DNA of 64,000 bases from Minisyncoccota bacterium (GCA_028704755.1 JAQWEU010000002.1:1-64000); one strand, 5' to 3'; shown: positions 41,466-41,691, numbered from the stretch's first letter. Notes: a model not told the origin generated them from the sequence alone. Numbers and translations are program-made.

Positions 41466-41691
41466 TTGTCCAGGAGTAATTATCAAGGACACAGGAAGAA
41501 GGATAGTTATAAGAGTAAAATATTATCTGGACAAGGATGTCTTACGGATAATCAACGTATTATCAATCTAAATAAGTCTTTTCTGGACAGAATATATATG
41601 CATTTGTCCAGATTATGTCCAGTAAATGTCCAGATTATGTCCAGTAAATGTCCAGTAATTCCCAGATTTATTTATCTGGACATTTGTCCAG
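41466..41691. repeat. Iteron-like array of TGTCCAG / CTGGACA heptamers. It includes six tandem copies at exact 11-bp spacing and two palindromic pairs
   Basis: Direct TGTCCAG at 41467, 41605, 41616, 41627, 41638, 41649 (a degenerate TCCCAG at 41660) and 41685. Inverted CTGGACA at 41527, 41583, 41676. Perfect palindrome TCTGGACA-TT-TGTCCAGA at 41675-41692. Confidence 0.7.

Follow-up and report, generated by a model that had tools for sequence, protein, structure and literature searches.

Among the described systems closest to the element treated here are the operators of Streptomyces antibiotic regulatory proteins (SARPs) and OmpR/PhoB-type regulators (PimR, ActII-ORF4, and the Pho boxes), in which a 7-bp site and a less conserved, AT-rich 4-bp spacer form units that recur every 11 bp along the same helical face, and winged-helix monomers bind these units cooperatively, head to tail (PMC5930380). 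Our subject is an array of the heptamer TGTCCAG in a 64,000-nucleotide stretch of DNA from a Minisyncoccota bacterium (GCA_028704755.1, JAQWEU010000002.1:1-64000; this whole stretch is called the window below), where it lies upstream of a gene for a winged helix-turn-helix (wHTH) protein that is itself followed by a gene for an extracytoplasmic function (ECF) sigma factor. The window array has the same 7+4-bp unit structure as the SARP and OmpR/PhoB operators, but the likeness ends there in several respects. The candidate reader has no Trans_reg_C match and instead appears to carry a DeoR/HTH_11/ArsR-like wHTH domain, C-terminal to a bundle resembling bAvd; arrays of this kind hold 10 to 30 copies rather than 2 to 3, combine inverted with direct copies, and change position within their gene module from lineage to lineage; and the array in the window ends 200 bp upstream of the −35 element, with no overlap.

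Plasmid iterons resemble the array in being short, phased, intergenic direct repeats beside a winged-helix gene, with inverted copies that could serve autoregulation, and the original prediction, made from the window alone, had offered two readings: iterons of a cryptic integrated replicon, or a cooperative operator array for the downstream envelope regulon. Phased direct and inverted repeats are common to both kinds of element and do not discriminate between them. The replicon reading did not survive comparison, since no Rep-type family was found in Pfam and NCBIfam scans of the two flanking gene products (41929–42789 and 40586–41440, which gave only wHTH matches or nothing), and the region belongs to the chromosome, is syntenic in relatives, and stands 20 kb away from the actual oriC. 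The 11-bp unit (22-bp super-unit) with its 7-bp core also differs from iterons of 17–22 bp, and the partner gene here always precedes an ECF sigma factor. Phased short repeats beside a wHTH gene thus need not be iterons, and in this case the chromosome's own oriC can be seen 20 kb from the array. Partition centromeres (parC/ParR of R1, tubC/TubR, and AspA of pNOB8) are a third counterpart, with about ten tandem repeats of 11–12 bp on which a small DNA-binding protein assembles into a higher-order complex. Two such proteins, TubR and AspA, have winged helices, and some Paceibacteria arrays stand beside parS sites, but the conserved partners here are ECF sigma and surface-protein genes, and no partition NTPase (ParM, TubZ, or ParA) lies beside the array in the gene tables of 18 related loci.

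We found no description in the literature searched of either the heptamer array or the family of bundle-wHTH proteins. We rate the array as a probable tandem-repeat operator, from an understudied phylum, whose reader is of a new type and whose layout is unusual, mobile, and expandable. Next to nothing has been learned of gene regulation in the Candidate Phyla Radiation (CPR, or Patescibacteria), whose members are uncultured, have reduced genomes, and are thought to be largely episymbiotic; here a specific cis element is now paired with a widespread, uncharacterized regulator family. The regulator gene stands ahead of those for an ECF sigma factor and for giant peptidoglycan-binding surface proteins, for which functions in the envelope or in attachment are plausible.

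A dense, phased heptamer array in the window

The intergenic region at 41441–41928 (488 bp), between the genes for a 284-aa hypothetical protein and the 286-aa wHTH protein, contains ten exact copies of TGTCCAG or its complement CTGGACA. Five of these start on the plus strand at 41605, 41616, 41627, 41638, and 41649 (41605–41655), a period of exactly 11 bp in which each 7-bp core is followed by a 4-bp AT-rich spacer, ATTA alternating with TAAA; Tandem Repeats Finder calls the run as a 22-bp unit, TGTCCAGATTATGTCCAGTAAA, present 2.3 times with 100% match. Six heptamers had originally been counted at this period, and five of them are indeed exact and in phase, but the sixth is a degenerate TTCCCAG on the plus strand (41659–41665) with two mismatches, placed 10 bp past the fifth exact copy. 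The other five exact intergenic copies start at 41467 (+), 41527 (−), 41583 (−), 41676 (−), and 41685 (+). They account for the inverted pair CTGGACAG-N13-TTGTCCAG at 41583–41611 and the perfect palindrome TCTGGACA-TT-TGTCCAGA at 41675–41692, both present as originally described, and for further copies at 41467 and 41527.

The original prediction hinged on positional enrichment of the heptamer, and this is what the 64-kb window shows. TGTCCAG occurs 27 times against 5.5 ± 2.5 expected from dinucleotide shuffles, and 10 of the 27 copies fall within a 226-bp intergenic stretch (Poisson P for at least 10 copies in 226 bp, about 1.6e-19), with the remaining 17 all inside open reading frames (ORFs). 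Shuffles of the intergenic region never yielded any 7-mer ten times (0/2000). When density was measured without regard to motif, as occurrences of any 6-mer per 220 bp across the 64 kb, the array scored 10, the runner-up 6, and the DnaA-box cluster at oriC 5; the TGTCCAG array is the densest short-word cluster of the window. The repeats were also considered as coding sequence, which we rejected because the 11-bp period and the mixed spacings of 9, 10, 11, and 12 bp break every frame; the ORFs that cross the array (41430–41696 on the plus strand and 41693–41878 on the minus strand) are not conserved.

The array is a conserved part of a wHTH-sigma module

The contig is a Paceibacteria (CPR) chromosome, and its 286-aa wHTH protein has a match of 100% identity in a Candidatus Pacebacteria/Paceibacterota metagenome-assembled genome (MAG). 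The array sits in a conserved gene order, ClpB, a Trypsin_2 protease, one or more hypothetical proteins, the array, the wHTH gene, the ECF sigma factor, a membrane protein, and a giant PG_binding protein, and this full order recurs in contigs whose wHTH proteins are 57%, 56%, and 49% identical to that of the window. At locus L011, with a wHTH protein 44% identical, ClpB precedes the same module without the protease. Whether the region is an islet absent from close relatives had originally been raised as a point to check; the block is not an islet, being syntenic where the wHTH protein is 44–57% identical (L003, L004-8, L009, and L011). Every contig sharing the ClpB-to-PG_binding synteny has a TGTCCAG or TGGCCAG cluster upstream of the wHTH gene, and all of the homologous loci first fetched had a TGTCCAG/TGGCCAG/CTGGACA cluster.

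In a wider scan of metagenomes for homologs of the wHTH gene, which gave 80 loci, we scored as an array any 6-mer occurring at least 7 times within 220 bp. By this measure 56 of the 80 loci carry an array, with 7–30 copies of one 6-mer, and none of these arrays falls outside the module. Most (43) occupy the wHTH-sigma spacer, 8 precede the wHTH gene, 4 follow the sigma gene, and 1 follows a wHTH gene at a contig end. The loci below the threshold mostly have mixed-motif arrays or sit on truncated contigs.

Within the clade of the window the layout itself is conserved, even where identity to the wHTH protein of the window drops to 40%. A leading plus-strand copy is followed by several irregularly spaced minus-strand copies, a box with the core AACGTAT, an inverted pair around an AT-rich center, a plus-strand run at 10–12 bp, and a closing minus-strand copy; 3' of the array comes unconserved AT-rich DNA of about 45 bp or about 200 bp, then a promoter-like element. 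In the window the leading copy (GGTTGTCCAGGAG, 41467–41473, plus strand) opens the cluster directly after the terminator-like hairpin of the upstream gene, and it has equivalents in L003, L011, L143, L145, and L151. The upstream inverted copy (TTATCTGGACAAGG, 41527–41533, minus strand) is one of the irregularly spaced minus-orientation copies, of which relatives have three or four. The second conserved element, AATCAACGTATTATCAA (41550–41566), precedes the central inverted pair by about 15 bp, and the AACGTAT box occupies the matching relative position in L003, L004, L009, L011, L143, L145, and L151; it was considered as a site for integration host factor (IHF), but the IHF consensus matches in the window only and not in the relatives. 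The central inverted pair (41583–41611), with its AT-rich N13, forms a conserved hinge between the minus- and plus-oriented copies, and phased runs occur also in L002, L003, and L004, with a period of 11 bp, and in L009, with one of 12 bp. The closing palindrome, ATCTGGACA-TT-TGTCCAGAT followed by a T-run (41674–41693; minus copy at 41676–41682 and plus copy at 41685–41691), scored as terminator-like, but we rejected an intrinsic terminator as its main role, as only the motif is conserved and not the hairpin: L003 has direct copies at this position and L004 a pair with a 21-nt loop, and the heptamer persists in both.

More distant Paceibacteria have wHTH proteins of about 220 aa, 31–41% identical to that of the window, and at these loci about 14 copies of (C/G)TGGACA, all in the same orientation, take up the whole stretch from the wHTH stop to the sigma ATG. 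At about 45 loci all copies share one orientation and fill the transcribed spacer to within about 20 nt of the sigma ATG. In the lineages with arrays after the sigma gene (L148, L149, and L152), the copies bracket an AT-rich promoter-like TGTTTATATGC...TATATATAAT before an anti-sigma-like gene. The clade with arrays between the wHTH and sigma genes also has three or four direct copies of the heptamer inside the sigma ORF, usually with one inverted copy just downstream, in the part encoding the sigma2-sigma4 linker about 250–300 bp past the start (L015 7117–7176, L146 1309, L181 4069, and others); in one example ATTCTGGACAATCTGGACACGGTTCTGGACA...CTGTCCAGAAT encodes ILDNLDTVLDK...AVQND. This cluster looks like an auxiliary intragenic operator. 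A 20-nt stretch of it is identical to part of the intergenic array, and in the sigma factor of the window the spacing of Asp residues is kept and the DNA motif is not.

Two distant family members have smaller sets. At L221 the 45-bp wHTH-sigma spacer holds TTAGGACA, GCGGACA, and two inverted TTGTCCTAA, a compact 2+2 inverted operator, and at L220 about six mixed copies lie within 147 bp; a compact GGACA operator was probably ancestral, to be expanded into arrays in Paceibacteria. L221 has a different tandem repeat as well, GATATCG five times at 1700–1760, between the wHTH promoter and ATG, besides the GGACA operator before the sigma gene.

Copy number differs even between near-identical contigs, with a 51-bp difference between L211 and L212, 14 copies versus 18 at L191 and L192, and 9 versus 13 at L013 and L015. 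To judge from such pairs the arrays expand and contract quickly, and these differences may leave room for a tuning or phase-variation role. In 85 non-identical same-orientation runs the gaps are 9–13 bp and the per-array means cluster at 10.5 bp, which is reached through different unit structures (9+12, 10+10+12, 11+9+11+11, 13+8, and 11 repeated).

Motif variants follow the predicted recognition helix of the wHTH protein

The original prediction gave the 41929–42789 product a winged-helix end, and in the AlphaFold model of this 286-aa protein a C-terminal winged helix, apparently of DeoR/HTH_11/ArsR-like type, follows an N-terminal four-helix bundle and a disordered linker (residues 132–214), with good confidence in both domains. 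The bundle has the four-helix topology of bAvd and 23S-rRNA intervening-sequence (IVS) proteins. Those proteins are stand-alone bundles, whereas here the bundle is fused to a wHTH domain and no retroelement lies nearby. Avd is a pentameric barrel that works with a reverse transcriptase (PMC6182149). The bundle here is likely an oligomerization module, and the disordered linker that joins it to the wHTH domain is 40–90 residues long. The structural neighbors of the wHTH protein are repressors, with the winged-helix proteins TubR and AspA also among them. The family combining a bAvd-like bundle with a wHTH domain comprises about 1,400 clusters at 50% identity (E ≤ 1e-10), and in the three distant members with fetched contigs the gene is adjacent to a sigma gene in all three.

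Across these lineages the 3' core of the site, G(A/C)CA, is constant and the 5' triplet is lineage-specific (CTG, GTG, GCG/CCG, TGG, and CGC, plus the variant CTGGCCA). The motif CTGGACA goes with a predicted recognition helix ..RTIRRELK, CTGGCCA with SERS(I/V)RREIK, GCGGACA with NPRSIRRELQ, GTGGACA with xxRSIRRELK, CGCGACA with GTRSLQRKLN, and TGGGACA with NRRSILRKLN, while region 4.2 of the sigma factor is almost invariant across all six motif/helix classes. That the motif changes together with the predicted recognition helix, and not with the sigma factor, favors the wHTH protein as reader over sigma or a universal protein such as DnaA. These lineage-specific variants also constitute a natural specificity-swap series for working out a recognition code.

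Arrays at a second location and the chromosomal origin

A pattern scan of reference genome contigs gave at least 120 matches, for the most part high-GC coding repeats of no relevance here and an interspersed repeat of Bacteroidales. Among the matches listed, three Paceibacteria genomes (L079, L090, and L137) had arrays of TTCTGGACA with plsY/tRNA-Pro on one side and cca on the other. They have 5–9 copies where the whole array lies within the locus (L090 5333–5728, L137 1491–1710, and L079 7926–8000) and are interleaved with tRNA genes and with up to five perfect palindromes TGTTTCACGTGAAACA, which match the canonical parS consensus; the window contains no TGTTTCACGTGAAACA palindrome. L090 comes from the same MAG as L096, a sigma locus.

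The window contains a chromosomal origin. The genes yidC and rnpA on the minus strand are followed by a 680-bp spacer (20946–21626), dnaA (21627–22982), and dnaN (23270–24418), the whole block spanning 19871–24418, and the cumulative GC skew has its minimum at 20–22 kb, with no change at 41.6 kb. The spacer holds five canonical DnaA boxes at 21427–21538 (GTTATCCACC, GTTATCCACA, TTTGTCCACA, TTTATCCACC, and GTTATCCACA), which are of the type TTATCCAC(A/C)/TTGTCCACA, and TGTCCAG does not occur within oriC. The array therefore lies about 20 kb from the true oriC, which uses a different word.

A probable cooperative operator and its alternatives

We consider it probable, on the comparative evidence of module linkage, parallel change of motif and recognition helix, and spacing near the helical turn, that the array is a cooperative double-stranded DNA operator read by the bAvd-like four-helix-bundle and wHTH regulator, which would gate the sigma operon. 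The second of the two original readings, a cooperative operator array for the downstream envelope regulon, is backed by this evidence. We infer that the reader is the 41929–42789 product itself and that it binds cooperatively as an oligomer. Each 7-bp site (TGTCCAG, or CTGGACA on the other strand, with the core G(A/C)CA) would probably be bound by one winged-helix domain, and thanks to the long flexible linker several DNA-binding domains could line up along the same helical face, one at each turn, and build a higher-order nucleoprotein complex. If the bundle oligomerizes like Avd, then several tethered wHTH domains could occupy successive heptamers. Such a complex would control transcription of the operon encoding the wHTH protein, the ECF sigma factor, the membrane protein, and the giant surface protein. 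For the array in the window, 200–460 bp upstream of the operon promoter, this might take the form of autoregulation, looping, or a block to read-through from the clpB side; in most relatives, where the array fills the wHTH-sigma spacer or brackets the promoter of the anti-sigma-like gene, a roadblock or occlusion (or looping) would be simplest. Repression is the regulatory outcome that we favor.

Several observations weigh against this reading. The co-variation of motif and helix is confounded by shared phylogeny, and it is imperfect: L151 pairs a SERSVRREIK helix with CTGGACA sites, and the array of L004 alternates TGGCCAG with TGTCCAG. The 10.5-bp mean spacing is partly built into the range of 8–13 bp used for chaining, whose midpoint is 10.5, and copying of a 21-bp unit would yield the same mean; L148 (13 bp) and L009 (12 bp) are outliers. 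Between the array and the −35 element, arrays of the window clade leave 45 to about 250 bp without fixed phase, a geometry that matches no standard layout for activation or repression. The HTH_11 match of the window protein is 24.9 bits against a Pfam threshold of 25. The distant homologs L214, L217, L218, and L219 have no array in the DNA available, and the arrays of L079, L090, and L137 have no wHTH gene in the fetched stretch, which means either that the wHTH reader has other targets or that the reader is a different, unlinked protein.

The latter alternative, the main rival, in which the array is a platform for a global, nucleoid-associated, or chromosome-organizing factor and the linkage to the module reflects what is regulated rather than what binds, is in our judgment unlikely, though it would account for the identical arrays beside parS and tRNA-Pro (plsY-cca), for the position of the window array only 20 kb from oriC, and for arrays whose 10–30 sites exceed ordinary operators. 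A global factor would be expected to hold one motif across lineages, but the motif variant tracks the wHTH recognition helix; arrays in wHTH loci are without exception inside the module (56/56), and in distant members the wHTH-sigma spacer is precisely where a small GGACA operator is retained. Less likely again is action at the level of RNA, with (N)GGACA units in the leader of the sigma mRNA binding an RNA-binding protein or tuning translation or stability. This would fit the roughly 45 loci where single-orientation copies run through the transcribed spacer almost to the sigma start codon, apparently leaving no room for a separate promoter, and L154, where a promoter-like TTGACT-17-TATAAA directly upstream of the array would place it in a 5' leader. 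In the window clade, however, the copies are in both orientations, past the terminator-like hairpin and upstream of a conserved promoter, and within one MAG the arrays of the sigma locus (L096) and the tRNA-Pro locus (L090) face opposite ways with respect to transcription, all of which argues for double-stranded DNA. The same-orientation array of L015 shows no significant RNA fold (z = −0.3), and the region in the window reaches z = −3.6 solely through pairing between inverted copies. Against Rfam the region had no match at the gathering score and only chance-level matches at E up to 10, while the whole window at the gathering threshold gave one unrelated tRNA. A CsrA-type GGA motif or an m6A-like GGACA motif was rejected on the orientation of the copies together with the CGCGACA and CTGGCCA variants, which lack a GGA core, and the spacing averages a DNA helical turn.

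An iteron set or DnaA-box-like cluster, whether as the origin of a cryptic replicon, as a secondary origin, or as a locus that titrates DnaA, is largely refuted, and we give it very little credence. DnaA oligomerization regions do resemble the layout of the array, with opposed runs, 11-bp spacing, and an AT-rich center; TTGTCCAGA is one base from the TTGTCCACA box variant in the oriC of the same genome, and arrays of the L015 type mix TGTCCAC with TGTCCAG (GTGGACA variants). But the true oriC, 20 kb away, uses TTATCCAC(A/C) and lacks TGTCCAG; all ten copies in the window have G where DnaA boxes have C, and the motif drifts to TGGCCAG, GCGGACA, TGGGACA, and CGCGACA in ways that a conserved DnaA would not follow. 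The array copies all read TGTCCAG and not TTATCCACA/TTGTCCACA, whereas the oriC boxes read T(T/G)ATCCAC(A/C)/TTGTCCACA, and there is no Rep gene, no break in chromosomal synteny, and no skew change at the array. A neutral minisatellite, made by tandem duplication without sequence-specific function, seems just as improbable. It would explain why copy number differs between near-identical strains (L211/L212, L191/L192, and L013/L015), and the alternation of 9 and 12 bp is what duplication of a 21-bp unit should give, but the heptamer persists between lineages whose surrounding intergenic DNA no longer aligns, the window-clade arrangement is conserved down to 40% wHTH identity, independent unit structures keep the same core, and the motif is found again within the sigma ORF and at another conserved locus. 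We find it scarcely credible, finally, that RNA polymerase holoenzyme itself uses the copies as −35-like elements (TGGACA against TTGACA) or as ECF-type promoter elements. TGGACA does match the sigma-70 −35 consensus at five of six positions, and ECF sigma genes are usually autoregulated; yet in the loci read no copy has a −10 partner at the right distance, region 4.2 of the sigma factor is almost invariant while the motif changes, and 10–30 tandem copies, one per helical turn, are no promoter architecture.

If the array is a cooperative operator of the kind proposed, a broader picture could be drawn, which we regard as doubtful when taken as a whole. In it an oligomeric (possibly pentameric, Avd-like) wHTH protein would polymerize on fast-evolving, phased arrays of 10–30 heptamers in Paceibacteria, and possibly in many Patescibacteria, gating an ECF sigma factor and giant surface proteins and also marking the parS/tRNA-Pro region, with copy number acting as a tunable or phase-variable setting for the expression of cell-surface (host-attachment) functions.

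Promoter and genes of the module

The wHTH gene (41929–42789, plus strand; 286 aa), which encodes the candidate reader of the array, is preceded by a promoter-like TTGACT-17-TATAGT at 41891–41919 on the plus strand, 9 nt before its ATG. The element is conserved as TTGACTTTT-17-TATAGT/TATAAT in every lineage examined, and its −10 ends 7–9 nt before the ATG, which suggests that the mRNA of the wHTH gene is leaderless or nearly so. Upstream of the array, the 284-aa protein encoded at 40586–41440 has no Pfam or NCBIfam match; its gene is syntenic in the window clade and triplicated in L009 (2067–4617).

An ECF sigma/anti-sigma pair had been claimed downstream of the wHTH gene. The ECF sigma factor gene is there (42811–43344, plus strand), 21 bp past the wHTH stop, and its product has regions 2 and 4 only (Sigma70_r2, 49.7 bits; r4_2, 39.3 bits; TIGR02937, 92.4 bits); in most other lineages it is directly preceded by the array. 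The next gene (43398–44177, plus strand) encodes a single-pass membrane protein in the anti-sigma position, homologs of which have weak or faint DUF5667 matches. The last conserved member of the module, at 44581–48087 on the plus strand, encodes a giant secreted or surface protein with an N-terminal PG_binding_1 domain, which is likely the regulated output of the module.

Outside the Paceibacteria, the CTGGACA-triplet pattern also occurs in the Bacteroidales MAGs RUG13410 and Reindeer_2_mag_28, as paired plus- and minus-strand matches that start about 36–47 bp apart (among the matches listed, L021, L023, L024, L027, L034, L049, L055, L084, L093, and others); these pairs look like an unrelated interspersed inverted-repeat element.

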